A stretch of DNA of 64,000 bases, taken from IMG/VR virus record IMGVR_UViG_3300028840_008157; one strand, 5' to 3'. Within the stretch, counting starts at the first letter, position 1. Each line of letters begins with the position of its first letter. This DNA comes from a virus (taxonomy: Duplodnaviria; Heunggongvirae; Uroviricota; Caudoviricetes). The translations under genes were made by a program, and so were the position numbers. Below, one piece after another: positions 19,897 to 46,412 of this stretch. The notes under the pieces are model-generated. The model made no database searches. It saw only the letters and a program-made list of their open reading frames with translations, and had not been told where the DNA came from.

Positions 19897-19897
19897 G

Positions 19898-20656: not shown

Positions 20657-20795
20657 GGAGATTGCTCGCAATAGGGACTCAAGACGGCCGGGCCCAGCCT
20701 ATTCATTTCATTCTATGTACGACGGCCGTCTTCCTTGAAATAGAGACGGGCGGCCGGGATCGCCGGCCGCCCGCTGGATCAACGACCGGCCTCGC

Positions 20796-21498: not shown

Positions 21499-21637
21499 CG
21501 CCTCGCAGCTTCATCATACGGCACAGATTCGTTCCTTCGGCGAACACGTCCTTTGGGATTGAAGACCGGAATTATGACGGGCAACCTGGCGCTCATTGAG
21601 GTATCATCCTCTCCAAGGGGAGATCATACAAGGATTC
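21499..21637. promoter_or_regulatory. Divergent intergenic region between minus-strand SEC-C gene and plus-strand SLOG operon; presumed divergent promoters
   Basis: Only sizable non-coding gap here; genes diverge on both sides; no motif confirmed. Confidence 0.3.
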
Positions 21638-22177
21638 ATGGATGAGCGGATCGAGGTTTGTTGCAGCAAATGCGGGTTCGTCACCATCGTCGACCCGGAC
21701 GCCTGCTCGTGCTACGGGTGGCCCAAATGCTGTGGTGAAACGATGATACCGAGGATTGGACCGATGAGGATCGTCATCGCCGGCTCAAGGTCGATCACGG
21801 ATTACGAGCTCGTGAGGAAGGCCATCGAGGATTCCGGGTTCCTGATCGACGTCGTCATATCCGGGGGCGCCCGCGGAGTGGACAGGATTGGCGAGGAGTG
21901 GGCGCAGAAGAACGGCAAGCCGATCAATAGATTCCTCCCGGACTGGGAGAGGTACGGTAAATCCGCCGGATTCATCCGCAACGACCTGATGATTCGCAAC
22001 GCGGACGGGGCGATATTCGTTTACGACGGGACGTCGAGGGGGACCGCCCATACGATATCGTTGGCCAAGAGGAAGGGCATCCCCACCTACATTCTCGACA
22101 CGTCGAAGGAGACGCCGGATGGGAAAGAAGAAAAAGAAGATCGACCCGATCAAGAAGCAACTGGTCCGGGCGTCTAG
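21638..22177 (+). CDS. SLOG-superfamily protein (DprA/DUF2493-like Rossmann nucleotide-binding domain) with N-terminal Cys-rich zinc-ribbon-like segment
   Basis: IVIAGSRS...VISGGARGVDRIGEEWA resembles DprA/DUF2493 GxARGxD motif; track start 21596 appears to be TTG, first ATG approx 21638. Confidence 0.65.
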   Translation: MDERIEVCCSKCGFVTIVDPDACSCYGWPKCCGETMIPRIGPMRIVIAGSRSITDYELVRKAIEDSGFLIDVVISGGARGVDRIGEEWAQKNGKPINRFLPDWERYGKSAGFIRNDLMIRNADGAIFVYDGTSRGTAHTISLAKRKGIPTYILDTSKETPDGKEEKEDRPDQEATGPGV

Positions 22178-22376
22178 CTCGGAGGATCAAGTCCTGAGCG
22201 ACATGAGCACTAACTTCCCGCTGGACGAGATCACCCAGGCGTACGAGAAGGGCATCGTGGCCGTCGACGACCACCTCACGAAGAACGAGGCCATCATCGC
22301 GAGGTCGCTCCTCGCGATGGGGATGGGGCAATACCTGAGGTGCGTGGCGGCCAAGCTCAAGGAGGAGAAGAAATGA
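22119..22376 (+). CDS. Small Lys-rich protein (85 aa), translationally coupled to downstream gene
   Basis: Stop overlaps ATG of next gene (ATGA) with GGAGGAG upstream; non-junk composition. Confidence 0.4.
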   Translation: MGKKKKKIDPIKKQLVRASSSEDQVLSDMSTNFPLDEITQAYEKGIVAVDDHLTKNEAIIARSLLAMGMGQYLRCVAAKLKEEKK

Positions 22377-23281
22377 GCATGATACCGGTCATCTTCGAGA
22401 TGGAGACGTCCGACCCCGACGACTTCATGACGCTCCTGTGGCTCGCAGACAACCCCAAGATCGACCTGAAGGCCGTCGTCGTGACGCCCGGGTCGAAGGA
22501 CCAATGCCAGCTCGTCAGGTGGGGCCTCGACCATTGCGGGCAGCGCGAGATTCCCATCGGGGCGCTTCACGGCCCCGAATGGTGGGACACGCAGGACGGC
22601 AAGAAGCTCAGAGTCTCGGGGTTCCATTATCCCACCTACGGGGAGGAGATCAAGAAACACGACGTGGGATGGGTTTGCGACGGGCCGGAGCTGATCGACG
22701 AGCTGGCCGAGTACAATATGACGGTCCTCGTCGGGTCACCGCCCAAGAACCTCGGGGCGGCGTTCCGCAGGTCGGACAGGGTTTACGTCAGCAGGTGGGT
22801 CCAGCAGGGCGGCTTCGCGGGGGACAACATGGTTGAGAAGCCCCTCGAGAAGTTCAAGGGGCGCCTGACGTGCCCCAGTTTCAACCCCGGAGGGGCCCCT
22901 AACCAGGTCATGGATCTCTTGCAGAACAAACGCATCAGCGTTCGGTTGTTCGTCTCGAAGAACGTCTGCCACGGGGTGACCTGGACCCACAAGATGCAGT
23001 CCGAACTCAAGTCCCGGATCAAGAACCGAAGGACCGGCCTCGAGACGATGATCAAGGGGCTAGATACCTACCTGGAGAAGAAGGGCGTCGCGAAGGCCAT
23101 GCATGACATCGTGGCGGCGTGTTGCGTCGTCGACGACTCGGTCTGCGAGTTCAAGAAGGCCGAGATATACCGCGAGAAGGGCGAGTGGGGGGCTCGCCCG
23201 TACTCCCCGACGGCGTTTACGGTAACGAAGATATCGGTGGGATTCGACGAGGAGAAGTTCTTGTCGGTCTTGTCGTCCTGA
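22373..23281 (+). CDS. Nucleoside hydrolase-like protein (inosine-uridine preferring NH fold, divergent)
   Basis: N-terminal acidic cluster IIFEMETSDPDDFMTLLWL aligns to IUNH DxDxxxDD Ca-binding motif; start trimmed to ATG 11 codons into GTG-initiated track ORF. Confidence 0.55.
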   Translation: MSMIPVIFEMETSDPDDFMTLLWLADNPKIDLKAVVVTPGSKDQCQLVRWGLDHCGQREIPIGALHGPEWWDTQDGKKLRVSGFHYPTYGEEIKKHDVGWVCDGPELIDELAEYNMTVLVGSPPKNLGAAFRRSDRVYVSRWVQQGGFAGDNMVEKPLEKFKGRLTCPSFNPGGAPNQVMDLLQNKRISVRLFVSKNVCHGVTWTHKMQSELKSRIKNRRTGLETMIKGLDTYLEKKGVAKAMHDIVAACCVVDDSVCEFKKAEIYREKGEWGARPYSPTAFTVTKISVGFDEEKFLSVLSS

Positions 23282-25172: not shown

Positions 25173-25952
25173 TTAGCTCCGCCCGTGGATGTAGTCGAAT
25201 ATCTCCTTTCCGATCTGCTGGTCGCCGACCTCGACCTCGTTGGCCTGCATCCTGGCCCTCTTGGTCGCGGCGATGAGCCGGTCAATCTTTGCGATCCACT
25301 CGGCCTTGTCCTTCGGATGAGCCGAGCCCGAGAAGTTCGTATGGAGGAACTTGCCGATCTGGACGTCCTGCGTCTCCGCCTTGACCTGGGCGGGATGCTC
25401 CTTGGTCTCCGGCCTTAGGACGACGGGGATCGTCTTCTTGGCCGTCCTGTACTGCTCGACGGGGCCATGCTTGCGGTGTCCAGGCTTCCCCCCATCCTCC
25501 CAGTTCTTGGACATGTCGATCGTCGGGATCGCGTCGTAGTAGGCGCGAATCTCCCGCAGGCGCTTCTCCAGGGCCAGCAGGTACGTCGCGGGGACGTCCT
25601 TGGCCAGGGCGCGCTCGCCGACCACGAGGTCGGCCTTGGCCGACATGTTGCCCGCGTCCTTGACGAGCTCGAAGTCGAGCAGCTCGGCGATCTTTTTCTC
25701 TGTCCAGGCGAGTCGCTCCTCGACCGTGGTCACAACTTCCTTCGCCTCCGTCGGGAGCTGGTCTCCCGCGGCGTCCTTGGGCTGGTACTCGCGGTAGAAG
25801 CCCTCGAGAAGGTCGCGACTCTTGAAGACCTTCATGGTCTCCTTGGTAATCTTGTCGGCGGCCCCCTTGACCTCGTTCTCGGTGATGATGTGTTGGTAGA
25901 GTTTCCTGGCCATTTTTCCTTCCTCCTTTTTGTCTCCTGGATGCGAGATCAT
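25173..25952 (-). CDS. Hypothetical protein (259 aa), Lys/Glu-rich
   Basis: Clean ORF upstream (same strand) of tRNA-like elements and terminator. Confidence 0.6.
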   Translation of the reverse strand: MISHPGDKKEEGKMARKLYQHIITENEVKGAADKITKETMKVFKSRDLLEGFYREYQPKDAAGDQLPTEAKEVVTTVEERLAWTEKKIAELLDFELVKDAGNMSAKADLVVGERALAKDVPATYLLALEKRLREIRAYYDAIPTIDMSKNWEDGGKPGHRKHGPVEQYRTAKKTIPVVLRPETKEHPAQVKAETQDVQIGKFLHTNFSGSAHPKDKAEWIAKIDRLIAATKRARMQANEVEVGDQQIGKEIFDYIHGRS

Positions 25953-26030: not shown

Positions 26031-26663
26031 TCAAGCCCACGACTTGGCCCAATGATGGGCGCAATACGTCTCCGGGGAATAAGCCAGCGGCGGCGATTCC
26101 CACCACAAATACGGGCAGAACCGGTACTTCGGGTGAACCGTGAGCGGCAACTCCGGATGATCCAGATGGACCGACGTCACGAAGTCGTTGGCCGTCTGGG
26201 CCACGATGTTCCCGTTGATCTCCCTCGTGGGAAGGAGCTCCATCGTCTTGGCGAAGAACGCCGATCCGGGCGTGGCCCCCATGGGCGTCGTGGATAGGTA
26301 TCTTTTTTCCTCGTGTTGCAGGCCGGCGAAAGCCTCCGCGTCGAGCAATGGGTCGAACGGCCTGAGTACCTCCGTGTCCGCGTCGATGTATATCCCGCCG
26401 TGGCGATGGAGAATCTCGAGCCTCATGATGTCGGCCTTCTGGGCGGGTTTCCGGGCGGCGTCGATCATGGGGGCCATGACGAACCTCCCGACGTCGTGGT
26501 TGGTCCACAACCTGAAGCGCCATCCGGGGTGGAGTTCCCGGCATCGGGCCATCCATCCCTGGAACTCCCTCGGCATCTCCTCGGTCCCGACCCATATGTA
26601 ATGCATGTTTTTTGGTATCAATTTTGTATGATCCTCGTCTGTATGATACCTCAAAAGGGCCAT
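26031..26663 (-). CDS. GT32-like glycosyltransferase (Och1/Gly_transf_sug family, DXD)
   Basis: HYIWVG and QKADIMRLEILHRHGGIYIDADTE motifs. Confidence 0.8.
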   Translation of the reverse strand: MALLRYHTDEDHTKLIPKNMHYIWVGTEEMPREFQGWMARCRELHPGWRFRLWTNHDVGRFVMAPMIDAARKPAQKADIMRLEILHRHGGIYIDADTEVLRPFDPLLDAEAFAGLQHEEKRYLSTTPMGATPGSAFFAKTMELLPTREINGNIVAQTANDFVTSVHLDHPELPLTVHPKYRFCPYLWWESPPLAYSPETYCAHHWAKSWA

Positions 26664-26680
26664 GAGGCGCGGATTGAAAC

Positions 26681-27577
26681 ATGGACTTGATCATACCGGT
26701 CTTCAACAAGCCGGAATATACCCAGGCCTGCCTCGATTCACTGTTGGTAACCGACCCGGGAACGAACTTGCGACCCATCATCGTCGACAACGGATCGCGA
26801 ACGAAGACGCGCCGCCTTCTTGAACGATGGATCAAGGATGCCCGAGAACGACCCTTCTTGTCGGATCCCAGGATCGTCGCCAACAAGGAGAACTTCGGCT
26901 TCGCCGGCGCCCTGAATAGGGCCATCAACGAGTCTCGCGACGGCGAGCTGGCGATGATCATGCATAACGACTGCATCCCCTTCAAGGGATGGGCCAGGGA
27001 AATGCTCGATTGCCTCGAGCTCCACGAGGATGACGACGTCATCGCGGTCGCGCCTCGGACGAATTACGCGAACGAGATGCGTCCGTGCCTCCCCGGCGTC
27101 AGGGAACGATTCGAGGGGCTCAAGTTCCCCAACAAGGACAGGGTCGCCGTCGATCAGATCGACGGGCTCATGCGGGAGTTGTATCCGGAGGACCAGGACG
27201 CTTTCCTGACGAGGCTCCGTGATGACCCTCGAACGTCGTACCTCCCAGAGATATGCTCCTTTTGTCTTCTCGTTCGCAAGCAAGCCCTCCGCGACGTCCC
27301 GTTCGACGAGGACTTTTGGCCGAGGTTCTTCGAGGACAAGCTCTGGTTCCTCCACCACGAGAGGCAGGGCTGCGCTTGCATGCTGTCGAATTGGTCTTAT
27401 GTGCATCACTTCGGGAACATTACCAGCGATGGCCCGGGGTTCTCGATGCCGGACTTGTTCGCGATGAACGAGAAGAAATTCAAGGAGAAGGTTCGCGTCC
27501 TCAACGAGCGTCCCTTCGGCCAAAAGGAGACGAAGCCCGATGTTGCGGTTCATAACGACATGCATGGGGCGCCTTGA
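26681..27577 (+). CDS. GT2-family glycosyltransferase (GT-A fold)
   Basis: LIIPVFNKPEYTQACLDS...IVDNGS signature; 17-bp divergent gap from GT32 gene. Confidence 0.8.
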   Translation: MDLIIPVFNKPEYTQACLDSLLVTDPGTNLRPIIVDNGSRTKTRRLLERWIKDARERPFLSDPRIVANKENFGFAGALNRAINESRDGELAMIMHNDCIPFKGWAREMLDCLELHEDDDVIAVAPRTNYANEMRPCLPGVRERFEGLKFPNKDRVAVDQIDGLMRELYPEDQDAFLTRLRDDPRTSYLPEICSFCLLVRKQALRDVPFDEDFWPRFFEDKLWFLHHERQGCACMLSNWSYVHHFGNITSDGPGFSMPDLFAMNEKKFKEKVRVLNERPFGQKETKPDVAVHNDMHGAP

Positions 27578-30500
27578 ACACGCCAAGAAGGCCGTCCGGA
27601 GCCTGCTCCCCCAACCCGACAGCGGGATCGTGTTCGTGGACTGGGGTTGTCCGGATAATTCCGGAAATTGGATGATCAACCTCCAGCGCGAACAACCCGA
27701 CAAGTCGATCATCGTGCTCCAGGCTCCGTGGGCCAAGAATTTCAACCTCTCCGGAGCCCGCAACCTGGGGGCGCGAAGCGGGGCCCTCGCCAAGGACGAC
27801 GTCCTTTGCTTCGTCGATTGCGACATCGTCGCGTCCGCCAGCTTGTCGGCGGAAATATCGAGGAGGATCGAGCCGGGGGTTTTCCTGACCTTCCAGCCAC
27901 GCGGACTTCCGACGGACGGTACATGCGTCGTCCGCCGAGGGGACTTCGAGCGCGTCGGGGGGTACGACGAGAACTTCAGGAGCTATGGGCACGAGGACGC
28001 CGATTTCTACGACGCGCTTCGTTTCGCCGGCCTCAAGGAGAGGCACTTGCCCGTTTCCCTGGTCGAGCACGTCGATCACGAGCCCGACAAGGAACGCTAC
28101 GAGATGAGGCTTAACTCCTGCGAGAACCAGATGTACCGCAGGACCAAGTGGGAACTCGCCCGAAGGCTTGGCAAGCCGCTGTCCGGCGAGGAGCGAACGT
28201 CCCTGTATGGCTCGCTCGTCCAGCGTTATCAACGGCTAGATCGACCAGAACCGGACGTCCCCCCGGCGTCGCCCAAGGTTTCTTTCTGCACCGCCTGCAA
28301 GGGAAGGGAATGGCAGTTACGGGCCACGTACAAGAAGAACATCGAGGACAATCTCTGCTACGGCAACGTCGAGTTCGTCCTGCTTAATTATGACTCCCCA
28401 GGCGACATCGATGAACTCGTCAGGGACGAGCTCAAGGAGTACATTGACCGAGGCGTCCTCAAGTACTACGCGCTCAAGACTCCCGACAACGCCACCCCGT
28501 GGCATTGCTCCGTGGCGAAAAACGTCACCCACAGGCTAGCCATGGGCGACATCGTATGTAACCTGGACGCGGACAACATGACGAAGCCGAACTTCGCCAC
28601 GCTGCTCGCCAAGACATGCAGGCCGGGCGTGGCCCTCCGGGCGCAGGGGCAGAAGGGCGCCGGCGGCATGATCGCCATGTGGCGCAAGGACTTCCTGTCC
28701 GTCGGCGGATACGACGAGAGCTTCCTGGCCGTGGGACACCAGGACAACGACATGGAGGATCGCCTATGGGCTGCCGGGCTGGAAGTCGCCCTTTTCCGGT
28801 CGATGCCCAACACGGTGATACCCAACACCAATGTAGACCGGATGAGGTTCGCCGGGGGCGGTCAGTACTTCGCGATGTCCGAGGAGAACAGGCGTCGCAA
28901 GGAAAAGAACAAGCAACTCGGACGCGTCGCGGTCAACGAGTTCGGATTCAAGCCCGTCGAGCTCCTCTTGAACTTCGACAAGGAGGTGACGCTGGACGCC
29001 TCCAATCCGGACCTCGTTACGACGATCTCCGACGTGAACCCCCTCTACAAGAGCTTCGCGTGGTCCAAACCATTCGACGAGGAACCGTCGGGGTGCTGGT
29101 ACGTGGTACACAAGGATTGGCGCGATCCGCTCTTCCTGAAGCCCGACGGAGATTTCTACCGGCCCTCCAAGGACGACGGGAAGTGGAGCCACGTCGGCAA
29201 CCGCCTGCACGTGTTATGGGACAACTGGGCCCCCGAGACGCTCGGCGTGAGCGGTGACGACGTCATCAGGGGTCGCAACATGCGCGCCATGCGCCTCGGA
29301 AACTGGAAGCCGGGGGGCTCCCCTCGGCGGCTGCTTGGTCCAGAGGCCTGGAAGGACGTGTTCGAGCCATGGCGCGGCAAGAAGGCCGCCTACTTGCAGA
29401 TGTACGGGAACGTCGGGGACCAGATGATCTATGACGCCACGTTGCAACTGATGTCCCATTACGGCATCAGCTACGAGCGCTGGCACGACGACTGCGACGT
29501 CGACGTCCTGATGATCACCGGGGGAGGCAACCTCGGCGAGGAGGGCCAGGCCAAGAGGCGCAAGAAGGTCATCGACTGGGCGATCAAGAAGGGCGTCAAG
29601 TGCGTGATCCTGCCGCAAACGATGATCCGGAAGGGCAACGAGACGTTCGCCAAGGAAGTCGACGTCTACGCCAGGGAGGACGCCACGCGCGCCATCGTCG
29701 ACGGATCGCGCTTCGCCCCGGACATGGCGCTCGGGTACCGGGCCGACCTGGAGCTCCCGGAACCGGTGTTCGACAAGGGCTACTTCTGCTCGAGGAGAAC
29801 CCATCGGTTCGTCCACGCCTGCGACCCGACGAGGCTATGCGATACGCCCCAGGGGTACGTCGCCCTGGCGGCGCTCTTCAAGGAGATCGTGACGAACCGC
29901 CTCCACTTCGCCATCGCCGGCCTCATCGCGGGACGCAAGGTCACGCTGTTCCCGAACGAGTACCACAAGAACAAGGCGGTCTGGGAGGCTTCCCTGAGGC
30001 ATCTCGGCTGCGAATGGCGCGACGACATGGTCCCGGAGGAGGAGATCCCGGAAGACGACGTCGTGGCCCAGCTATCTTTCTTCATCTGCTACGGCAAGAG
30101 GACGCCCCTCGCCAATCTGACCGACCCTATCGACGTCTACGTATTCGGGACCCAACGAAGCGGAAACCACGGAATCATCAAGTGGCTCCTCGGTCAATTC
30201 AAGCACCTGAACCCGGACGACAACCTGCGCAAGGAGGGCATTTTCAGGAACGACTGGAACAACGGCGGCCACAACGAGAACTTCGTCCCGGACGACAGCC
30301 GTATCCCCAGGAAGGACAACGTCAGGCTCATCAGCTACGAGAACGACTGGAACGTCCTCGATCCGGAGAGGCGCGACATGCTCCTGCGGGACGACCCGCA
30401 TGTCCGGAAGAGGTGCTTCGTGGTCCTGAGAAGCCCCCTCAACTGGTTCGCGTCGACGACGCGCTGGTCCAAGCGAACCCCTAAGGACAAGATCGTCGAG

Positions 30501-30824
30501 CTGATGATCCGGTACTTCGAGGACTTCTACCTGGAGCCGAAAGATCCTCGGGTGATCCCGATCCTGTTCGATCGATGGTTCGTGGACAAGGAATACAGGA
30601 TGAAGATCGCCAGGGAGATCGTCGACGATCCCAATGACAGGGCCTTCGGTACGATGGACGCCTTCAGCACGCCCAGCTCTTTCGACGGGTGGGGTCATCG
30701 ATTCGACGCGAAAGCGCTCAAGGTCCTCGAGCGGTACAAGCAACTCTCCAAGGAGGACATGGAAGCCCTCCTCGCCAACCCGCGGATCATGAGGATACTC
30801 GAGGCGCTGGGGGATGTCCCGTAG
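27540..30824 (+). CDS. Giant multidomain glycan-modifying enzyme (1094 aa): two GT-A modules (DCD/DAD, GGYDE..GHED.D), polysaccharide pyruvyltransferase-like domain (NRLHFAIAGLIAGRKV), C-terminal sulfotransferase-like P-loop region
   Basis: Motifs FITTCMGRLEH..VDWGCP..CFVDCDIVAS..VGGYDENFRSYGHEDADF; ISFCTACKGREWQL..NLDADN; pyruvyl-transferase C-motif; GTQRSGNHG. Confidence 0.8.
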   Translation: MLRFITTCMGRLEHAKKAVRSLLPQPDSGIVFVDWGCPDNSGNWMINLQREQPDKSIIVLQAPWAKNFNLSGARNLGARSGALAKDDVLCFVDCDIVASASLSAEISRRIEPGVFLTFQPRGLPTDGTCVVRRGDFERVGGYDENFRSYGHEDADFYDALRFAGLKERHLPVSLVEHVDHEPDKERYEMRLNSCENQMYRRTKWELARRLGKPLSGEERTSLYGSLVQRYQRLDRPEPDVPPASPKVSFCTACKGREWQLRATYKKNIEDNLCYGNVEFVLLNYDSPGDIDELVRDELKEYIDRGVLKYYALKTPDNATPWHCSVAKNVTHRLAMGDIVCNLDADNMTKPNFATLLAKTCRPGVALRAQGQKGAGGMIAMWRKDFLSVGGYDESFLAVGHQDNDMEDRLWAAGLEVALFRSMPNTVIPNTNVDRMRFAGGGQYFAMSEENRRRKEKNKQLGRVAVNEFGFKPVELLLNFDKEVTLDASNPDLVTTISDVNPLYKSFAWSKPFDEEPSGCWYVVHKDWRDPLFLKPDGDFYRPSKDDGKWSHVGNRLHVLWDNWAPETLGVSGDDVIRGRNMRAMRLGNWKPGGSPRRLLGPEAWKDVFEPWRGKKAAYLQMYGNVGDQMIYDATLQLMSHYGISYERWHDDCDVDVLMITGGGNLGEEGQAKRRKKVIDWAIKKGVKCVILPQTMIRKGNETFAKEVDVYAREDATRAIVDGSRFAPDMALGYRADLELPEPVFDKGYFCSRRTHRFVHACDPTRLCDTPQGYVALAALFKEIVTNRLHFAIAGLIAGRKVTLFPNEYHKNKAVWEASLRHLGCEWRDDMVPEEEIPEDDVVAQLSFFICYGKRTPLANLTDPIDVYVFGTQRSGNHGIIKWLLGQFKHLNPDDNLRKEGIFRNDWNNGGHNENFVPDDSRIPRKDNVRLISYENDWNVLDPERRDMLLRDDPHVRKRCFVVLRSPLNWFASTTRWSKRTPKDKIVELMIRYFEDFYLEPKDPRVIPILFDRWFVDKEYRMKIAREIVDDPNDRAFGTMDAFSTPSSFDGWGHRFDAKALKVLERYKQLSKEDMEALLANPRIMRILEALGDVP

Positions 30825-31470
30825 GATATCGTTCTGCACGACCTGCAAGGGGAGGCTCTGGCAGCTACGCCAGACGTACCTGCTCAACGTCGAGACGGCG
30901 ATCGAGGAGCATGACGACGTCGAGTTCGTCCTGGTGAACTACATGTCCCCTGACGAGTTGGACGACTGGGTATCGACGAGGCTCTCCCGCGTCGAGGGGC
31001 TCGTCTACGTCCGCCTCCGGGAACCCCTCCCCTGGCACGTCTGCAAGGCCAAGAACATGGGTCACCGGGCGACGACCGGCGACGTCATCGTCAACCTCGA
31101 CGCCGACAACTTCCTCGGCGAGGGGTACGTCTCCAGGGTCGTCGCGGAGGTCGGACCCGGGAACGCCTCGCGCCTGGTCGGGCACCCGTCCGTGGGCGGC
31201 CGGATCGCCGTCCATAGGGACGACTTCTTCGCCGTCGGCGGCTACGACGAGTCGCTGGCCCCCATGGGCCACGAGGACAACGACCTGGAGGCGAGGCTCG
31301 TCCTTAACGGGGTCAAGGTGGCCCATTGGCCACGCGGCCCGTTGCCGGTCGACAACACGGACGAGCAGCGCGCCGAGTTCTGCGACGCGAATTTCCCCGA
31401 ATGCGCCAGGCGAAGCGAGGAGATCAGCGCCGGGAACCTGAGGGCCGGGAGGATCGTCGCCAACTCATGA
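30814..31470 (+). CDS. GT-A glycosyltransferase (type-II module, CTTCKGRLWQL / DADN / GGYDESLAPMGHED)
   Basis: Near-identical module architecture to second module of 32788..36339. Confidence 0.75.
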   Translation: MSRRISFCTTCKGRLWQLRQTYLLNVETAIEEHDDVEFVLVNYMSPDELDDWVSTRLSRVEGLVYVRLREPLPWHVCKAKNMGHRATTGDVIVNLDADNFLGEGYVSRVVAEVGPGNASRLVGHPSVGGRIAVHRDDFFAVGGYDESLAPMGHEDNDLEARLVLNGVKVAHWPRGPLPVDNTDEQRAEFCDANFPECARRSEEISAGNLRAGRIVANS

Positions 31471-32060
31471 GGTTCGTCTTCGTCCACATCCAGAAGACCG
31501 GCGGAGACAGCGTTCGCTCGGCCCTGGGGCTTCCCGTCACCGGGAGGACCAAGCACTTCTCGGCCAGCGAGCACCTCGGAAGGATCGGGGTCGAGGCTTG
31601 GGGGAGCTCCTTCAGCTTCTCGTTCGTCAGGAACCCGTGGGACCGCCTCGTCTCATGGTGGGCGATGATGAGGAGAATCCGGCGTGAGAACCCGGAGGGC
31701 CGCGGACTCAACCCGTTCGCCAAGTACATCCTCGACAACTCCGATACGTTCGAGGAGTTCCTGTCCTGCGACGAGGTCATGGACTTGCCGGACGGCGCCC
31801 GATCGCTCTGGAGGAACCAATACGATTACCTGACCGGTCCCGACGGATCCATGATCGTGAGCTTCGTCGGGCGGTTCGAGCGCATCGAGTCGGACTTCGA
31901 AAAGGTCGCCAGGATCATCGGCCGCGACGCGAAGGTTCCCCACGTCAACAAGTCCCATCACGATCATTACTCCTCGTATTACACGCCCACGCTGGCGAGG
32001 ATCGTCGGCGAGCGCTTCGCGAGGGACGTCGAGGCGTTCGGGTACGGCTTCGAGGGTTAG
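31467..32060 (+). CDS. Sulfotransferase-family protein
   Basis: 5'-PSB-like motif FVFVHIQKTGGDS; start set at internal ATG forming ATGA overlap with upstream stop (track ORF begins earlier with Arg-rich junk). Confidence 0.65.
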   Translation: MRFVFVHIQKTGGDSVRSALGLPVTGRTKHFSASEHLGRIGVEAWGSSFSFSFVRNPWDRLVSWWAMMRRIRRENPEGRGLNPFAKYILDNSDTFEEFLSCDEVMDLPDGARSLWRNQYDYLTGPDGSMIVSFVGRFERIESDFEKVARIIGRDAKVPHVNKSHHDHYSSYYTPTLARIVGERFARDVEAFGYGFEG

Positions 32061-32064
32061 GGAA

Positions 32065-32784
32065 TTGTACACGATGGAGGAGAACTGGGCGCTGGTCGAG
32101 GAAGCCAGGCGCAGGGTTTCCGGGCGCCGACCGCGCGAGCTCGGGATCCTGTTCCTCTATCACAAGACGTGCGACGTAACCGAGAGGAACCTGGAGTCGC
32201 TCGAGCGATCGGGTCATCTCGTGATCCCGATCTCGATGGAGAGGGGCGCGTACTTCTCTTCCGGTTACTGGCTCGAGCAGACCCCGTTCTGGGGCGACCT
32301 CACGGGGTACGACCCGCGGAGGTGCTGGTATAATATGGACGCCTGCTATTACGAGTACTATCGCAGGCGCAACGAGAACTGCAAGCGATGGCTCCTCGCG
32401 GAATGGGACGTCCTGTGCAAGGGACGCGTCGAGGACTTCTACGGGAACCTCTGGGACGAGGACTTCGTCGCCGCCACGATCCATCCCCCTGAGGGTAGCC
32501 GCTGGCATTGGTTCAAGGAGGTCGAATCGCTGCCTTACTACATGCGCGGACGCGCCTTCGGGGCGTCGCCCCTCGCCGGCGTCCTGTTGTCGGACGACTG
32601 CATGGAACGGATCGTCCGCGAGTCGTGGCGCATCGACGCCTTCTGCGAGCTGAGGATCGCCACGCTCGCCAGGTTCGCGGGGCTCCTGCCGATTCGCAAT
32701 CCCAGGGCGCGGGGAAAGCTGAAATGGAGGCCGAGCCCGGTGGTCGACGGCGACGGCCTCTGGCATCCGGTCAAGGAAATGTGA
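32065..32784 (+). CDS. Hypothetical protein (239 aa) within glycan cluster
   Basis: Clean ORF, Trp/Tyr-rich; no motif recognised. Confidence 0.5.
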   Translation: MYTMEENWALVEEARRRVSGRRPRELGILFLYHKTCDVTERNLESLERSGHLVIPISMERGAYFSSGYWLEQTPFWGDLTGYDPRRCWYNMDACYYEYYRRRNENCKRWLLAEWDVLCKGRVEDFYGNLWDEDFVAATIHPPEGSRWHWFKEVESLPYYMRGRAFGASPLAGVLLSDDCMERIVRESWRIDAFCELRIATLARFAGLLPIRNPRARGKLKWRPSPVVDGDGLWHPVKEM

Positions 32785-32787
32785 CCC

Positions 32788-35700
32788 ATGTTCCTCGTCG
32801 CCAAGCGTGAGATCACGGAGCACAAGGGCGACCCGGAGGAGATGAAGAAGCTCCTTCTCCGGGACGACTACCTTTACGCCTGCTTCCTGTACTCCGACCC
32901 GCTCAGCCCCTTGTTCGTCCACGTCAAGCCCGGGAAGGCCAGGCTGATGGCCGACTGGGAGAGCAACGACTTCTGGTTCATGGAAGTCCCGACGTCCTTC
33001 CTGTACCCGTCCGAGACGAGCCTGAGGATGGGCCATGGGGCTTCCATGGCCCACTTCTCCAGGCTTGGATGGATCGCCGAGGATGACGCCTGGATCGAGA
33101 ACCGGATGCCCGTCCGTCAATACGAGCAGAGGATCCAAGGGCTCCTCGGTCATTTCGAAGAGAAAAGGTTGTTGTTCTTCGGCTCCCTGGACGGACACGA
33201 CGAGAGGGGCGAGACGAGGAGGTCCCAAGTCAAGCTCCTCGAGACGGCCGGATTCACCATCGTGACGAAGTCCTTCTTCCCCGAACCCACGAGGAAGTTG
33301 ATCGACGTCCTCGAGGACGAGAGGTGCTGCGCCGTCCTGGGGATGGACGGACTGAGCGTGGGCTGCATGAGGGACCATGAGGTCGCGTTGTCGGCCGTCC
33401 CCTACCTGAGGGTCACGAGGACGATCCAGAACGTTCCCTTCGTCAACCCGACTGGCCGCGCCTGGGTCGCGACGGCGCAGGGAGCGGACGTCGGTCGCGC
33501 CTTCGCGGAGATGAAGGCGTCGGCCTCGTGCGGGACAATGTCCGAGCGACTTCTCGACGCCAGGGACGTGTCCTTGGCGATGAGGGACAATTGGCGCTTC
33601 TTCCAATGCCTCGACGCCTGCTGCTTCGATTCCGATTCGGCCCTCCGGGCGGCCGAGGAGATCGCGATTCGAGACGCGTCGATTCCCGAGGCGATCGAGG
33701 GGGCGCTTCCCGGGAAAGTCCTGGAAGCCGAGAAGGTGGATACCTTCATGGTGTTCGATTCCGACGGGTCTCTCCTGCCGGGGAGATTCAAGATCGGGGA
33801 AGTCCATGGCGCCTCGGAGGGGCGGCCGGCCCTCCTCCAATCGCTGGTGGGCGAGAAGGGCCTCCCCAAAAACCCCTTGATATCGTTCGTGGTGCCTTGC
33901 ATGGGAAGGCTCGAGCATCTGCAACGGGCGCTCCCGAGGTTGTCCCAGCAGCCCAATTCAGAGGTCGTCATCGTCGACTGGTCGTGCCCGGAGTATTGCG
34001 GAGACTGGGCCGACAAGTTCCCCCGGACGCGCGTCGTCAGGGTCCCGGGCCAACGGACGTTCAACCTGTCCAAGGCGAGGAACGCCGGCGCGGGGGAGGC
34101 TCGCGGGGAGTGGCTTTGCTTCCTTGACTGCGACATGATCGTGTCGCCCAAGTTCGCGACGGAGCTATCGAAGGGATTCAAGGACAAGTCCTACGTCAGC
34201 TTCGGAACGCTCGGGTCGGCCGGCCATTCGGGGATGACGACGTGTCGCAAGGCCGATTGGGAGGCCGTCGGGGGCTATGACGGTCGCATGGAGGGCTGGG
34301 GGTACGAGGACACCGACTTCAAGCATCGCCTCAGGCTCAGGGGGCTCTCGGGCGTCGTGGTCGACATGTCGCTCGCCAAGCACATAGATCACGACAACGA
34401 GGCGAGGACCAGGTTTTACGACGATGACCAGGCGACGAGCCACGGCAGGAACGAAGCCCTTTCCCAACGGAAGATCAAGGATCGCAAGAAGATCGTCGGC
34501 CTATGGAAGGCCACGCATTCCTCGTGGAAGGGCTTCCTGTTCTTCGACGAGGACGGCTCGTTCTCCCGTCAGGCGCACGGAGATCACGGAAGCTGGCTGC
34601 TCGAGGATGGCGAGCTGGTCCTCAGGTGGGCCAAGTGGCCCCCCGAAAGGTTGAAGGAGAAGGAACCGGGCCAATACGCCGGGACGTTCATGACCCTGTC
34701 AAAGGAGGAGCCTCTCAAAAGGAAGGACGACGAGAGCCTCCAATACGTCGGCGATTGGACCGTTAGGCATGACGACTGGAAGGACACGATTAGCCTCCTT
34801 CGGGACGGAACATTCCATAGGTCGAGCGTCAAGTGGGAAGGGGGCACGTGGGAGTCGCTGGGGGGCCGCGTCCTGTTGAAGTGGGACCGATGGGGGACGG
34901 AAACGGCCAACTACGAGGACGGAAGCCTCGTCGGCGACCGGTTCGTCGCCGTCAGGCCGTGGCGCCTGGAACACCCCAAGATATCCCTTTGCACGACCTG
35001 CAAGGGGAGGCTGTGGCAATTATCACGGACGTTCCTTGGAAACGTAAGGAGAGCCCTGGAGGAGTACGACAACGTCGAGTTCGTCCTGATGGACTACGGC
35101 TCCCAGGACGGGCTCGAGGATTGGGCGCGGACGAAGCTCCGGAAGTACGTCGACGAGGGGATCGTGAAGTACTGCAAGCTCGTCGACGATCTTCCGTGGC
35201 ATGCGTCCAAGTCCAGGAATCTGGCCCATCGGATGGCGAGCGGGGTCATCCTTTGCAACGTGGACGCCGACAACTTCCTCGGCGAGGGATTCGTCAAGAA
35301 ACTATCCTTCGAAGTCGGACCTAAGAAGGCCGTCAGGCTGGCTGGCGACGCGTCCGTGGGGGGACGCATCGCCGTCCACAAGGACGACTTCTTCGCCGTC
35401 GGCGGTTACCTCGAGTCGTTGGCCCCCATGGGCCACCTCGACAACGAGTTCGAGCGCAGGCTCGGGAGCAACGGCGTCCGCGTGATCCACTGGCCGAGCG
35501 GGCCGTTGCCGGTCGAGAACACGGACGCCCAGCGGGCCGAGTTCTGCGACAGGTCGTACGCCGAGTGCATGGCCCACAGCAAAAAGGTCATGGACCGGAA
35601 CCCCGTGGTCAACGAGCGGTTCCAGCGCGCCACGGTCCGCGTGAACTGGTCTAGAACCGTCGAGCTGGGGCCGGAACGCGGGGACGTTAGAAAGAAACTG

Positions 35701-36339
35701 GGGATCGCCCCGGCGCCTGCGAAGGTCAGGATCGTCTCCTTCTTCAAGGACAACATCCCGGAGGAGGCGAGGTCGGCGCAGCGGGCGGTCATGAGGAAGT
35801 TCGGGCAACGGATCGAGCAGTTCCGGTTCGCGGCCACGCACCAGCAGGCCATCGACGGGTTCATGAGCGAAATGGATTGGAGCCGCCACGACTTCCTCGT
35901 CATCCTCGACATCGACGCCGTGCCCACGAGCGACGAGGGAATCCCGTACATGGTCGAGGAGATGAGGAGAGGGCGCCTCGTCGGCTGCGCGCAGGCCGCG
36001 AACCACGGCCATATGAACCGCGACCACGTCTACGTCGGGCCGTTCTGCGTCGGCCTGACGAGGGACGTCTTCGAGGCGCTCGGGAGGCCCTCCTTCCTGG
36101 AGACCGCCAGGTCCGACGTCGGGCAGGAGCTCACGTGGCTGGCGCAGGAGAAAAACGTGCCCGTCTCCATGATGCTGCCGACGAGCGTCGAGGAGCCCCG
36201 CTGGGCGCTCGGCCCGACGGGCAAATTCGGGCTGGGGACGGGATACGGGGTCGCCGGCGTCGAGTTGTTCTGGCACGCCTTCGAGTCCCGGTACCGGACC
36301 GAGCGGTTCGTCAGGAAGTGCAAGGAGCTGCTGGCATGA
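32788..36339 (+). CDS. Giant multidomain glycosyltransferase (1183 aa): N-terminal unknown region, type-I GT-A module, Trp-rich repeat domain, type-II GT-A module, C-terminal unknown domain
   Basis: VVPCMGRLEHL..IVDWSCPEY..CFLDCDMIVS..GGYDGRMEGWGYEDTDF and ISLCTTCKGRLWQL..NVDADNFLGEGF..GGYLESLAPMGHLDNE. Confidence 0.8.
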   Translation: MFLVAKREITEHKGDPEEMKKLLLRDDYLYACFLYSDPLSPLFVHVKPGKARLMADWESNDFWFMEVPTSFLYPSETSLRMGHGASMAHFSRLGWIAEDDAWIENRMPVRQYEQRIQGLLGHFEEKRLLFFGSLDGHDERGETRRSQVKLLETAGFTIVTKSFFPEPTRKLIDVLEDERCCAVLGMDGLSVGCMRDHEVALSAVPYLRVTRTIQNVPFVNPTGRAWVATAQGADVGRAFAEMKASASCGTMSERLLDARDVSLAMRDNWRFFQCLDACCFDSDSALRAAEEIAIRDASIPEAIEGALPGKVLEAEKVDTFMVFDSDGSLLPGRFKIGEVHGASEGRPALLQSLVGEKGLPKNPLISFVVPCMGRLEHLQRALPRLSQQPNSEVVIVDWSCPEYCGDWADKFPRTRVVRVPGQRTFNLSKARNAGAGEARGEWLCFLDCDMIVSPKFATELSKGFKDKSYVSFGTLGSAGHSGMTTCRKADWEAVGGYDGRMEGWGYEDTDFKHRLRLRGLSGVVVDMSLAKHIDHDNEARTRFYDDDQATSHGRNEALSQRKIKDRKKIVGLWKATHSSWKGFLFFDEDGSFSRQAHGDHGSWLLEDGELVLRWAKWPPERLKEKEPGQYAGTFMTLSKEEPLKRKDDESLQYVGDWTVRHDDWKDTISLLRDGTFHRSSVKWEGGTWESLGGRVLLKWDRWGTETANYEDGSLVGDRFVAVRPWRLEHPKISLCTTCKGRLWQLSRTFLGNVRRALEEYDNVEFVLMDYGSQDGLEDWARTKLRKYVDEGIVKYCKLVDDLPWHASKSRNLAHRMASGVILCNVDADNFLGEGFVKKLSFEVGPKKAVRLAGDASVGGRIAVHKDDFFAVGGYLESLAPMGHLDNEFERRLGSNGVRVIHWPSGPLPVENTDAQRAEFCDRSYAECMAHSKKVMDRNPVVNERFQRATVRVNWSRTVELGPERGDVRKKLGIAPAPAKVRIVSFFKDNIPEEARSAQRAVMRKFGQRIEQFRFAATHQQAIDGFMSEMDWSRHDFLVILDIDAVPTSDEGIPYMVEEMRRGRLVGCAQAANHGHMNRDHVYVGPFCVGLTRDVFEALGRPSFLETARSDVGQELTWLAQEKNVPVSMMLPTSVEEPRWALGPTGKFGLGTGYGVAGVELFWHAFESRYRTERFVRKCKELLA

Positions 36340-37532
36340 GACGACGCGCGAGACCAAAACTCTTCTGCGTCAAGCCTCGGCTTCCCGTCGAGGAGCCGAA
36401 GCAGATTGTCGTCCAAGACGAGCACAAGGAGCCGGAATCATTCCTCGAAAGGGTCGCCAATCAGAGGATTCTCGTCGTGGGAAACGGGCCAAGCGCGCTT
36501 CGATGCGCCAAGATGATGGAGGAGTTCGACGTCGTCGTCAGGTTCAACAAGTTCGCCATCAGGGAGGGGACCGGCGCAAGGACGGACGTATGGGCGTGCT
36601 GCCTACTTCCCGACGTCATAGACCATATTGTTTCCAATGTCGAGAACATCAAACCCAAAGTCGTATTTCTTGTGCAACACGATAAATCTGATGATTGGTT
36701 GTCAAAATGCATTGACCGAGTTAAAAAAACAGGCATTCGCCTTTGTATATCTTGCCGAGACGAGTGGGAACGTATGGTACAAGAGTTAGACGGGGGTCCT
36801 CCAACAACGGGAGCCATGGTCGTAAACAAATTAATAGAAACGGGGGCCAAACCTACATTGATAGGGTTTGACCAGGTTTGCGGAAATCTAAAAAGTTATT
36901 TTAGACAAGAGGATATGTACTGGAGACACGTTCCATTTATCGAAAGTACATGGCTTATAAAACAAAGAAACCATGGATATCTCAACATTGAAGGCTTAAT
37001 TACTGAAAAAGAAGAAGATGAAAAATATTCGAGTTGTTATGCCCATGGATACGGTCATGGTCCTATTTTTGAATTATTTTCGTTCGGCAAAAAAATAAAC
37101 GCTTTTGATCATGTTCGAACCATATTTGACGCCGGATGCGGTACTGGCGAAGCCATGTTAATGCTCCGGAGCAATGGTTTTTATGTATCAGGAATAGATA
37201 TATCGTCTTTGGCAGTCGACAAGGCTTCGTCTTCGGGACTAGAAGTGATTCATGGGTCGCTAACACAAATCCCCTCCTGTCATTTTGACCTCGTATGGTG
37301 TTGTGATGTACTTGAACATTTGCCAATGATTTGGTTAAACGAAGCTTTGATAAAAATCAAAGGGGTTTCTAAAAGATGCTTATTCAGCATATCTACACGT
37401 AAAAGTATGTTTCGTAAAAATTTGCATTTAACGGTTCGCTCTCCAGGTTGGTGGTCTGAATTGTTGTCTTCCTATTTTTCTATACGACAGTACGAAACTA
37501 CCAAAGATTCCATCAAGATTTTTACGGCCTAA
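36336..37532 (+). CDS. Fusion protein: CstII/GT42-like sialyltransferase-type N-domain + class I SAM-dependent methyltransferase C-domain
   Basis: ILVVGNGPSALRCAKMMEEFDVVVRFNKF (cf. CstII IIAGNGPSL..DFDVFRCNQF); FDAGCGTGEAMLML...FDLVWCCDVLEHL MTase motifs I and post-I; ATGA overlap with upstream stop; 3' two-thirds AT-rich. Confidence 0.75.
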   Translation: MRRRARPKLFCVKPRLPVEEPKQIVVQDEHKEPESFLERVANQRILVVGNGPSALRCAKMMEEFDVVVRFNKFAIREGTGARTDVWACCLLPDVIDHIVSNVENIKPKVVFLVQHDKSDDWLSKCIDRVKKTGIRLCISCRDEWERMVQELDGGPPTTGAMVVNKLIETGAKPTLIGFDQVCGNLKSYFRQEDMYWRHVPFIESTWLIKQRNHGYLNIEGLITEKEEDEKYSSCYAHGYGHGPIFELFSFGKKINAFDHVRTIFDAGCGTGEAMLMLRSNGFYVSGIDISSLAVDKASSSGLEVIHGSLTQIPSCHFDLVWCCDVLEHLPMIWLNEALIKIKGVSKRCLFSISTRKSMFRKNLHLTVRSPGWWSELLSSYFSIRQYETTKDSIKIFTA

Positions 37533-38910
37533 CAGCAATTACAAAGAACGTGTTGTTCGGCAATCGTAATTCCGTCGTCGTTCCAACATATACATCGTAT
37601 GGATGTATTGTTTGGCCTACTTTAATTCCAACTCGTTCTCCTGTTTTATTGAGTCCCTTCGGAATACGAACATTACGTGTAGAATCTTTGGCGAAGAATA
37701 CCGTCATAGGCATATAGACATCTACATCAAAAGGCGAAGACGCTATGCCTTGAAGAAGAGTCCATCCTTCGTATTTTTTGGGTACATCGATCAGAGTATA
37801 ATCCCTATTAGTATATAGTCTTTGACCATCCTTGAGTGGTATTTGGTTGCATGATGTCTTGAATCTGAATCTAATCAATCGCGTCTGTCCTCTTCGTGGC
37901 GTATCGGAGAATAGAATAGTTTTTTGTTGGTTTTCTATTCTCTTGTTTTGGTCACAAAAACCTAACTTTGCCAAGCTCAATATTCGAGTTTCTTCTGTAA
38001 TGCATACAGTACATGGGGCCATGGCTCTTTGCCCTTCTTTGTCAATTAAAGGCTTCCCATCCGCAAAAACCATCCAGCCGTCCCCCATCTCGGCGGACGT
38101 CGTCACCTCCACGTCGAACTTCGGTTTCTCCAGCTTGACCACGTCGGTCTTCACGATGGCGTCCCCCGCGACGGCCTCCACCGTCGCGTCCTCGTACTTG
38201 TCCTTCCGCAGGACCAGCTTGGCAGGCCCCTTGGGCAACCGGACCAAACCCGGGGTCCGAAGCCCCGTGTCGCGCAGCTCGCCGCCCTGCCTGACCAGGA
38301 TGGTGGCCCCTCGCGGGTCGCTCTGGACGTACACCTTGCCGTCGCCGCGCTCGGCACTGCCGACCACGTCGGTCTTGGGCTTGGCGGATACCATCTTCAT
38401 CAGCTTGAGGGACTGGTCGAGCGCGGTGAACCCCTCCGGCGTCCCCTTGAAGCGGTCCGCGACCTCGAAGTAGCGGACGGCCTTCAGGAGAGGGTCGGTG
38501 GTGTTCCGGGCGTACTCGTTGGCCCTGACCAGCCAGACCTTGGCGTCCTTGGGATCGACCTTCTTCTCGACGACCTCCTGGACGACTTTGGCGACCTTGG
38601 CGTCGCCGGCCAGCGCGTTGGCCTGGGCCAGCGTCATCCTCTTCTTGGCCCAGTAGAGCAGGGAGTTGGCCTCGGCGGCCCTCTCCTCGTTCCCGGACGC
38701 CTGGAACGCCTCGCTCGCCTTGGCGAGGACCTTGACGGCCTCGACGAGCTTCTCCTCCTTCAGGAGGGTCACGCCCTCCTTGAGCAGCTCCTGGGGTGTG
38801 GGGTTGGACGCCGTCACGACCACCTCGTGGTCCTTGGTTGGGCGTTCAACGCCGAAAAGCGGCATGACGAAGACCAGGACCAGCGGCAGCGCTCTCGTTA
38901 GGAATCTCAT
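37522..38910 (-). CDS. Secreted protein (462 aa) with signal peptide and helical/TPR-like N-domain; C-terminal third AT-rich
   Basis: MRFLTRALPLVLVFVMPLFG signal; convergent 10-nt overlap with 36336..37532. Confidence 0.65.
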   Translation of the reverse strand: MRFLTRALPLVLVFVMPLFGVERPTKDHEVVVTASNPTPQELLKEGVTLLKEEKLVEAVKVLAKASEAFQASGNEERAAEANSLLYWAKKRMTLAQANALAGDAKVAKVVQEVVEKKVDPKDAKVWLVRANEYARNTTDPLLKAVRYFEVADRFKGTPEGFTALDQSLKLMKMVSAKPKTDVVGSAERGDGKVYVQSDPRGATILVRQGGELRDTGLRTPGLVRLPKGPAKLVLRKDKYEDATVEAVAGDAIVKTDVVKLEKPKFDVEVTTSAEMGDGWMVFADGKPLIDKEGQRAMAPCTVCITEETRILSLAKLGFCDQNKRIENQQKTILFSDTPRRGQTRLIRFRFKTSCNQIPLKDGQRLYTNRDYTLIDVPKKYEGWTLLQGIASSPFDVDVYMPMTVFFAKDSTRNVRIPKGLNKTGERVGIKVGQTIHPYDVYVGTTTELRLPNNTFFVIAVRP

Positions 38911-46381: not shown

Positions 46382-46412
46382 GTCCTTTCATCATACGACG
46401 TATGATTCCAGA

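Follow-up and report, generated by a model that had tools for sequence, protein, structure and literature searches.

It is well established that giant eukaryotic viruses and a few mycobacteriophages encode their own glycosylation, and the glycosyltransferase (GT) clusters of large phages have usually been filed, untested, under host-surface modification. For the mycobacteriophages, Freeman et al. (2023), as cited in PMC12619734, are said to have described the glycosylation of the virions of Che8, Corndog and Myrna. Among the chloroviruses, which encode multi-domain GTs, the A111/114R protein of PBCV-1 has three GT domains (PMC7826918), and in Megavirus the protein Mg539, also with three GT domains, shares a six-gene cluster with the pyruvyltransferase Mg538, while a Moumouvirus cluster contains a sulfotransferase (PMC10117803). 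These soluble multi-domain GT systems of the chloroviruses and the Megavirinae decorate the virus particles (PMC7826918, PMC10117803). Here, we describe a cluster of eight genes, hereafter called the island, at positions 26031-37532 of a 64-kb stretch of DNA from the tailed-phage record IMGVR_UViG_3300028840_008157, hereafter called the window.

The island encodes at least eight GT modules, namely one GT32-like, one GT2, two type I GT-A, three type II GT-A and one sialyltransferase-like module, and two further GT candidates are the N-terminal domain (N-domain) and the C-terminal module of its largest protein, G. These are accompanied by tailoring modules: one pyruvyltransferase, one or two sulfotransferases and one S-adenosylmethionine (SAM) methyltransferase. 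Such a combination of glycosyl-, pyruvyl-, sulfo- and methyltransferases implies a complex anionic glycan. We propose that the island is a phage-encoded cytoplasmic glycan line that would most likely decorate virion proteins, a reading to which we assign a probability of roughly 40%. It builds on the domain identities, the solubility of the enzymes, the phage context, the conserved position of the island and the shuffling of its modules.

Gene A is located on the minus strand and genes B to H on the plus strand. The seven genes B-C-D-E-F-G-H span 10.9 kb (26681-37532) and overlap or abut their neighbors, with end/start positions of 27577/27540, 30824/30814, 31470/31467, 32784/32788 and 36339/36336 at the junctions, which indicates that they form a single, translationally coupled operon. 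The GC content at third codon positions of the open reading frames (ORFs) in the cluster is 0.79-0.92, as fits real genes in a sequence of 61% GC, and a separate gene call of the same contig is also available for them. A Pfam match is here considered to be above threshold if its gathering score was exceeded, which was the case for B, for two stretches of C, for D and for two stretches of G.

The original prediction was that two giant proteins each carry two different GT-A modules, and this was borne out by the Pfam stretches (Glyco_transf_7C at 1.8e-18 and Glyco_tranf_2_2 at 6.5e-15 in C; Glycos_transf_2 at 9.8e-24, in two stretches, in G) as well as by BLAST comparisons within the cluster, which separated the modules into two classes of paralogs, type I and type II. 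The type I modules (residues 1-181 of C and 364-536 of G) are 37% identical. Among the type II modules, residues 244-475 of C and 730-960 of G share 38% identity, and D is 60% identical to residues 731-934 of G. Between the two classes, the identity is 25-28%. The GT-A modules (GT2 or GT7-like; PF00535, PF10111, PF02709) combine the GT-A fold with the DXD motif for binding of metal and nucleotide sugar, and both types have relatives in beta4-Gal(NAc)T and chondroitin-synthase domains. A type II profile compared with the PDB gave K4 chondroitin polymerase (K4CP) as the best match (E=1.3e-11), followed by polypeptide GalNAc-transferases and beta4-GalT1.

The other components that had been foreseen for the island were also recovered: a pyruvyltransferase-like domain in one of the giant proteins, a Trp-rich repeat domain, a free sulfotransferase with the motif HIQKTGGDS, a free-standing type II module, a GT32 gene, a GT2 gene and an ORF without any assignment. 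The 1094-residue protein C (27540-30824, plus strand) contains five of the units discussed here. Its first module (27540-28244) is a type I GT-A with the motifs CMGRLEH, DCD and GGYDE..GHED (Pfam Glycos_transf_2 and Glyco_tranf_2_2), and the second (28260-28949) is a type II GT-A with CTACKGREWQL, DADN and GGYDES..GHQD, in which Glyco_transf_7C matches residues 369-419. Then follow a Trp-rich beta unit of about 72 residues, the W domain (29079-29294), and the polysaccharide pyruvyltransferase (29409-29957). The latter matches PS_pyruv_trans (PF04230) over residues 624-806 with an E-value of 3.8e-8 and 34.0 bits, where the cut-off is 25.3, with profile positions 1-278 of 280 aligned, and it matches the PDB entry 6x1l (“WbbZ protein”) at 5.4e-10.

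Module 4 of C (30117-30824) is a P-loop domain with the motifs GTQRSGNH and LRSPLNWFAS, for which a sulfotransferase-like identity had been suggested. The C-terminal 255 residues have no direct match in Pfam or NCBIfam, but an exhaustive HMMER search recovered 757 relatives, mostly free-standing proteins of 230-300 residues, and a family profile of 74 relatives matches the solved sulfotransferase 5x2b at E=0.0026. The alignment to 5x2b places the conserved stretch R-D-P-x-N-x-x-A-S on the 3'-phosphate-binding region, and by eye GTQRSGNH and RSPLNWFAS fit the motifs for binding of the 5'-phosphosulfate and the 3'-phosphate. Two of the 74 family members match Sulfotransfer_1 or Sulfotransfer_3, weakly. 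We therefore describe the domain as sulfotransferase-like, with remote profile support. An AlphaFold 2 (AF2) model of the whole 1094-residue protein, based on a nine-sequence alignment, has a mean predicted local distance difference test (pLDDT) score of 46, and only the type II module is modeled with confidence (70-90).

The protein G (1183 residues; 32788-36339, plus strand) consists of the N-domain, a type I GT-A module, two W domains, a type II GT-A module and the C-terminal module. The N-domain (32788-33867), of about 360 residues, is the signature of the G family and is kept in P0171-P0175 and in the related contig L003. It has no sequence or profile match in the PDB, Pfam or IMG/VR and was likewise not found in 185,579 species genomes of bacteria and archaea; a search of the JGI metagenomes yielded one locus. 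In the AF2 model it consists of two Rossmann-like halves and a helical bundle, with pLDDT values mostly of 80-90, and judged by eye alone it looks GT-B-like. The type I module (33874-34422) and the type II module (34975-35637; CTTCKGRLWQL, DADN; the second Glycos_transf_2 stretch) flank the W domains. The C-terminal module (35722-36339; ILDIDAVP) is possibly a divergent GT-A: its Pfam match to GT2 has an E-value of only 0.067, it is 62% identical to a part of P0023, and free-standing homologs occur in the Synechococcus phage S-SRM01 (gp340, 7e-9) and in a marine virus (6e-19). A Foldseek search with the model of residues 1-640 of G gave protein O-GalNAc transferases as the top matches, and the best-scoring solved relatives also include the lipid- or polysaccharide-directed polymerases K4CP, PmHS2 and TarP. 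These fold searches were dominated by the GT-A module and are uninformative for the N-domain and the W domain.

The W domain is a discrete unit of about 72 residues with the pattern GxWxxxHxxW...DGxF...GxW...LxLxWxxWxxE, which is present in one copy in C and in two copies in G (34486-34704 and 34741-34962). A hidden Markov model (HMM) made from 14 copies found the three domains with independent E-values of 4.9e-25 (C), 6.7e-28 and 6.6e-24 (first and second copy in G). The first copy in G is modeled as eight beta strands with pLDDT values of 76-90. Wherever the domain is present, in C, in G and in the G-like proteins, it is located ahead of the next catalytic module.

The remaining genes of the island are shorter. 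Gene A (26031-26663, minus strand) encodes a GT32-type glycosyltransferase with the DXD sugar-binding region (Gly_transf_sug 6.8e-12, Caps_synth 6.8e-7) and is divergent from the operon; in the separate gene call it starts at 26606. Gene B (26681-27577, plus strand), the first gene in the operon, encodes a GT2 glycosyltransferase (Glycos_transf_2 1.3e-19) that is kept in all related islands, with homologs of 45-62% identity in L003, L006, L007 and L008. Gene D (30814-31470, plus strand) encodes the free-standing type II GT-A module of 218 residues (Pfam 1.9e-10). Gene E (31467-32060, plus strand) encodes a sulfotransferase of the type that uses 3'-phosphoadenosine-5'-phosphosulfate (PAPS), which matches Sulfotransfer_2 at 3.5e-12 (47.4 bits against a cut-off of 22) and has the K-T-G-G loop for 5'-phosphosulfate binding (HIQKTGGDS) at its N-terminus. 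Homologs of E are present in jumbo and huge phages; the one in Stenotrophomonas phage DLP6 sits in the replication module, and its context is thus uninformative. Gene F (32065-32784, plus strand) encodes a Trp/Cys-rich module of 239 residues without any match in Pfam or NCBIfam, to which a homolog of 55% identity was found in L003; in P0022, an F-like domain is fused to a W domain and a sulfotransferase-like domain.

The last gene, H (36336-37532, plus strand), encodes 398 residues and had been described as a CstII(GT42)-like sialyltransferase fused to a SAM methyltransferase. The second half of this claim is sound, in that the class I methyltransferase (37083-37532) matches Methyltransf_25 at 4.3e-10 and Methyltransf_11 at 1.1e-9 and contains the SAM loop DAGCGTG. 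The GT42 assignment of the N-domain (36438-36980) was not upheld. It has no match to PF06002 (GT42), a profile of four homologs finds no structure in the PDB, and the hhalign alignment to CstII (1ro7) comprises 31 N-terminal columns only (GNGPS...DV.R.N; 63% probability). The match to GT29 (PF00777) is sub-threshold (E=0.036-0.039; 13.9 bits against 23), and Pfam scans of the H homologs brought nothing further. By eye, VVGNGPS..DVVVRFN, PTTG..(17 aa)..GFD and H-x4-E occur in order in all four H homologs, the latter two in the arrangement of sialyl motifs S and VS, and we consider the domain to be sialyltransferase-like at the motif level. The two parts of H are separate genes in L006.

Gene H has a base composition of 40-47% GC against 61% for the genome. 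It lies in a patch of low GC content (38-47%) at about 36500-38000, which spans H and the 3' end, about 160 codons, of the convergent gene to the right of the island. This neighbor (37522-38910, minus strand) encodes a secreted protein with a PEGA domain (1.5e-4) and a hydrophobic signal at its N-terminus. The low-GC patch at the right border suggests recombination or a cassette acquired by horizontal gene transfer. The relative L006 has an overall GC content of 46.6%, with 57% in the 5' part of its PEGA gene, and the patch together with the overall composition of L006 is indicative of cassette exchange between phages of different composition.

Relatives of the island are few: only a handful were found among 5.8 billion proteins searched. 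Neither C nor G has close relatives in IMG/VR, no match to the island was found at the DNA level in cultured phages, and phage isolates yielded neither the G N-domain nor the W domain. The original prediction had recommended that the same architecture should be sought in related genomes, and it is the position that is kept, with the modules reshuffled. The gene order in the related contigs is (DUF7873), GT2, a G-like protein, variable genes and the convergent secreted PEGA protein, and GT2, G-like and PEGA genes occur in this order in L006, L007, L008 and ERZ1426827. The PEGA protein is the constant right neighbor in every related contig, at 42-55% identity, and seems to be split into two ORFs in L006. 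The G-like proteins vary in length from 797 to 1641 residues and have the N-domain, the type I GT-A module and the W domain in common, and the variable modules are GT11 fucosyltransferase-like, GT_PLOD, Nucleotid_trans-like, type II GT-A and “GGGLGD” modules. The “GGGLGD” modules look GT9-like, but they have no match in Pfam and we do not claim an identity for them.

Furthermore, functions that are fused in one island are separate in others. The pyruvyltransferase, fused in C, is a free-standing gene in L006 and L007, and so is the methyltransferase that is fused in H. The C homolog in L003 is 826 residues long, 55% identical and without the sulfotransferase-like domain, and D and E are not present in L003. 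In other relatives, among them the proteins P0020, P0022 and P0023, these modules are joined in new combinations, such as pyruvyltransferase with sulfotransferase-like domain, F-like domain with W and sulfotransferase-like domain, and sulfotransferase-like domain with a module like the C-terminus of G. The island thus has a conserved position and a shuffled module content between related huge phages. Relatives of the type II GT-A modules occur widely in cellular genomes (158 loci). In Acinetobacter boissieri (L085, 7998-8678), a free type II GT-A gene is surrounded by ORFs without annotation and adjoins the gene for a DarA_N/LPD3 “polyvalent protein,” a setting that resembles a prophage or mobile element more than it does a polysaccharide locus.

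The window is part of a metagenomic contig of 546,627 bp (ENA ERZ27256783, k141_1799929) that encodes an identical G protein. Six contigs with the identical G protein were read, five of which are 0.2-1 Mb long. The 546,627-bp contig is very likely the genome of a huge (>200 kb) tailed phage, because it is of genome size and contains a transfer-messenger RNA (tmRNA) gene, a block that encodes giant virion-type proteins and further genes typical of phages. The tmRNA gene is complete and in one piece (52321-52681, minus strand; Rfam RF00023, 110 bits), with the tag peptide ANAKNILRLDRSAVALAA. The giant block (3212-20671, minus strand) encodes proteins of 1100, 810, 548, 319, about 416-460, 391, 1967 and 257 residues with PA14, Ig_Rha78A_N and Dockerin domains, one of which matches the PHROG category “virion structural protein” at 2.4e-14. 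It is continued by a gene for 3426 residues with VWA and BNR/Sortilin-type repeats (1-3211, minus strand), which runs off the left end of the window. The proteins of 319 and 391 residues share near-identical N-termini (MxYFPExxMPxxLAxE) and look like paralogs. The left neighbor of the island (25173-25952, minus strand) encodes a DUF7873 protein (Pfam 2.2e-71) with homologs in 75 phage records, one of which, 67% identical, occupies the same position in L007. Genes for SLOG, DUF4326 and DUF7694 proteins and many small ORFs without annotation are present in the window, and RF-1/PCRF, ClpS, HPr and NADAR proteins are encoded to the right of it on the same contig. Gene content of this sort is reportedly typical of huge phages, as Al-Shayeb and colleagues are said to have noted in 2020.

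Some other genes in the window may be mentioned alongside these. Two genes for GT4 (GT-B) glycosyltransferases (46326-47525, plus strand; 48303-49526, minus strand) are located about 10 kb outside the cluster, so that the glycan gene set of the phage is larger than the island and dispersed. An ADP-ribosylglycohydrolase gene (1.3e-64), which is found close to the island also in L003, is followed by a gene for a radical SAM protein of 489 residues (43192-45626, minus strand). Between the structural block and the island, at 21596-23281 (plus strand), a SLOG/YspA-family protein and a nucleoside-hydrolase-like protein, the latter with a sub-threshold Pfam match, are encoded.

None of the eight island proteins contains a transmembrane (TM) helix, and they are therefore considered to be a soluble, cytoplasmic set of enzymes. 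No polytopic membrane ORF (more than two TM segments) was found in a credible frame in the 64 kb, and genes for the synthesis of nucleotide sugars, PAPS or CMP-sugars were found neither in the window nor in the approximately 10 kb inspected to the right of it. It follows that the enzymes would act in the cytoplasm on donors supplied by the host. Likewise, Pfam searches of the large ORFs identified no Wzx, Wzy or Wzz, flippase, polymerase, ABC exporter or initiating phosphoglycosyltransferase in the cluster or in the whole 64 kb, and no ligase or Gtr-type membrane protein was found there either, nor a UDP-glucose dehydrogenase or Kps-type export gene of the kind associated with glycosaminoglycan polymerases. 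The absence of such genes had been noted for the cluster itself, and it extends to the surroundings, where an export pathway might have been located.

We considered in this context whether the island could be an ordinary cellular locus for O-antigen or capsule, given that polysaccharide loci draw on the same families of GTs, pyruvyltransferases and sulfotransferases. Every export and initiation gene by which such a locus is defined (Wzx, Wzy, Wzz, ABC transporter, phosphoglycosyltransferase) is missing from the 64 kb, however, and the phage-like contig of 547 kb with its many small ORFs, tmRNA and virion-type genes makes this explanation the least credible of those considered. The domain inventory and the lack of export and initiation machinery thus agree with the earlier statement that this is not an O-antigen locus.

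Our proposal for the function of a phage-encoded glycan line is as follows, where the donors, the order of action, the nature of the product as polymer or oligomer and the acceptor are the parts that go beyond the domain assignments. During infection, the enzymes would use nucleoside diphosphate (NDP)-sugars, PAPS, phosphoenolpyruvate, SAM and perhaps a CMP-sugar of the host in the cytoplasm. The modules would then, one after another, build a complex anionic oligo- or polysaccharide that is sulfated, pyruvylated and methylated, with neither initiation on a lipid carrier nor export being among the steps that the phage would encode. By analogy, the pairs of type I and type II modules may polymerize a repeat, as in K4CP, or add single residues, as in A111/114R. 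The acceptor would most likely be a virion protein of the phage, for example the giant fiber- or baseplate-type proteins that are encoded 5 kb away, and the decoration would parallel the virion glycosylation of chloroviruses, Megavirinae and mycobacteriophages.

The central idea of the original prediction, iterative glycosylation of a protein such as the neighboring fibers, is in this light plausible. Several hints point to such an acceptor. The island is located about 5 kb from the giant structural block, and it is likewise near a structural block in ERZ1426827. In the cultured jumbo cyanophage S-SRM01 (L092; NC_070963, 219068-235673), gp340 belongs to a small cluster that comes right after the genes for the baseplate and the long tail fibers and that also contains genes for a sulfotransferase, a 2OG-Fe(II) oxygenase, a beta-1,4-GT and an NDP-sugar epimerase. 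The Foldseek matches of G to protein O-GalNAc transferases and a GT_PLOD (collagen GT) module in one of the relatives point in the same direction.

Other observations weigh against it. Nothing in the sequence identifies the acceptor, and about ten small genes are located between the structural block and the island. The adjacent giant proteins, which the original prediction had called S/T-rich, are so to a moderate degree only, with 15-20% Ser plus Thr and a higher content in short linkers, and this description was overstated. Phage identity rests on context, as no capsid or terminase gene was found in the 64-kb window, and the genes for donor synthesis are missing, as described above. Furthermore, the GT-A folds match the polysaccharide polymerases K4CP, PmHS2 and TarP equally well, the island has a secreted PEGA protein as its constant neighbor, which speaks for the envelope, and the GT clusters of jumbo phages are usually read as host-surface modification (PMC7824862, section 3.4.10; PMC12801897).

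The last three of these points speak for a different hypothesis, namely that the phage enzymes remodel the surface of the host. They would then extend, cap, sulfate, pyruvylate or methylate lipid-linked intermediates of O-antigen, capsule or S-layer glycan at the inner face of the membrane, to be delivered by the exporters of the host, and the purpose would be a block of superinfection or an altered recognition. Pyruvyltransferases of the PS_pyruv_trans family and Sulfotransfer_2 enzymes are known to act on polysaccharides or lipid-linked units, soluble multi-GT polymerases (K4CP, PmHS2) are the top solved matches, and the type II GT-A relatives are widespread in cells. The fusion of sialyltransferase-like and methyltransferase domains in H could also recall chain-terminating caps. 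However, the 64 kb contain neither an initiating transferase nor a flippase, an ABC transporter, a ligase or a membrane protein of the Gtr type, and a foreign, heavily substituted glycan would need to be accepted by the exporters of the host. The eight to ten modules far exceed the number used in known seroconversion systems; Gtr-type seroconversion was ranked low for these reasons. The absence of the G N-domain from the 185,579 species genomes makes it less likely that the island was recently derived from a polysaccharide locus of cells. We regard the remodeling of the host surface as the main alternative, somewhat less probable than virion proteins as the target.

A third hypothesis is that the glycan is placed on yet another acceptor, such as the PEGA protein, another non-virion protein of the phage, or else a small molecule or an unattached oligosaccharide that leaves the cell when it lyses. 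Of the non-enzyme genes, only that for PEGA always adjoins the island, and the acceptor is otherwise unconstrained. Yet, the PEGA protein has a signal peptide whereas the enzymes are cytoplasmic, its gene is convergent and hence outside the operon, and there are no transporter or natural-product genes nearby. We find this explanation unlikely.

Finally, the transferases could glycosylate modified bases in the phage genome and thereby evade restriction. Phage GTs that put diverse glycans on DNA are known (Pyle et al. 2024, cited in PMC12619734), and a cytosine-methylase-like fragment, the radical SAM gene and the nucleoside-hydrolase-like gene are found nearby. But no gene for a hydroxymethylase or other base modification is located in or beside the operon, and the nearest solved relatives of the enzymes are directed toward proteins or polysaccharides. 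We also know of no precedent on DNA for pyruvyl- or sulfotransferases or for eight to ten GT modules, and hypermodification of DNA is in our view highly improbable.

We thus favor virion proteins as the target of the glycan line. In a more far-reaching version, which we put forward as a rather doubtful extension, the island would represent a clade of huge phages with a Lego-like glycan megasynthase, in which the N-domain and the type I GT-A module anchor interchangeable GT-A, GT11, GT_PLOD, pyruvyl- and sulfotransferase modules, a W domain serves as the adaptor ahead of each downstream module, and giant fibers are coated with a sulfated, pyruvylated and methylated glycan. If true, this would be the counterpart in a bacterial virus of the fibril glycosylation in giant viruses, and the first case of a phage particle that bears a sulfated glycan. 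The island is a compact and rich case, with some ten transferase modules and with non-sugar substituents of three kinds, all on soluble proteins. It raises the questions of what it is that huge phages glycosylate, how a glycan is handed over between active sites, whether W is an adaptor or a glycan-binding unit, and whether phage particles can acquire anionic, glycosaminoglycan-like coats. Glycoengineering could also draw on the modules for new soluble enzymes that transfer sugars, sulfate or pyruvate.

The setting in a huge phage, which the original prediction had not recognized, makes virus-encoded glycosylation the frame of comparison. The machinery of the giant viruses (PBCV-1 A064R and A111/114R; Mg539, L143/Mg538 and Ma461) resembles the island in that the GTs are soluble viral proteins with two to three GT domains, sometimes together with a methyltransferase, and in that pyruvyl- and sulfotransferases are found alongside, the content varies between clades and the process is independent of the membrane glycosylation of the host (PMC7826918, PMC10117803). 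Multi-GT proteins of giant viruses are also among the structural matches of the G model. However, these are Nucleocytoviricota that infect eukaryotes and usually contain nucleotide-sugar genes, whereas the island is located in a tailed huge phage and no such genes were seen in the window. The island proteins are also larger, with four to six modules, they have the W adaptor and a private N-domain, and no sequence relationship beyond the general GT-A fold was seen. K4CP (KfoC) of E. coli K4 and PmHS2 of Pasteurella have two distinct GT-A modules per chain, as do C and G, but the identity is only 17-22%, they belong to capsule loci that also provide UDP-GlcA and export of the KpsMT type, and the fused tailoring domains are particular to the island proteins.

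In the mycobacteriophages, as in our proposal, capsid and tail proteins are reportedly decorated by cytoplasmic GTs of the phage, to which methyltransferases are added in some cases. Their systems differ in being small operons of single-domain enzymes in genomes of 50-165 kb, with actinobacterial hosts and with neither sulfo- or pyruvyltransferases nor megaproteins. The jumbo cyanophages P-SSM2, S-SCSM2R and S-SRM01 encode many GTs (up to 13), accompanied by sulfotransferase and epimerase genes, in sets that are hypervariable between relatives (PMC7824862, PMC12801897), and S-SRM01 and S-SCSM2R contain homologs of single modules of G. These clusters consist of single-domain genes together with sugar-nucleotide enzymes and are read as host-surface modification, whereas the genes in the island are fused. 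The fusion itself had been called unusual, which is too strong in view of the multi-domain GTs in other viruses (PMC7826918, PMC10117803), the proteins of more than 1000 residues with a GT-A domain in uncultured Caudovirales, and K4CP. What is already known, then, is that viruses encode glycan synthesis in which GT domains are fused and pyruvyl-, sulfo- and methyltransferases take part. What is new is the setting in a phage of about 547 kb, the four to six modules per chain, the private N-domain, the W adaptor domain and an island that is conserved in position and shuffled in content.

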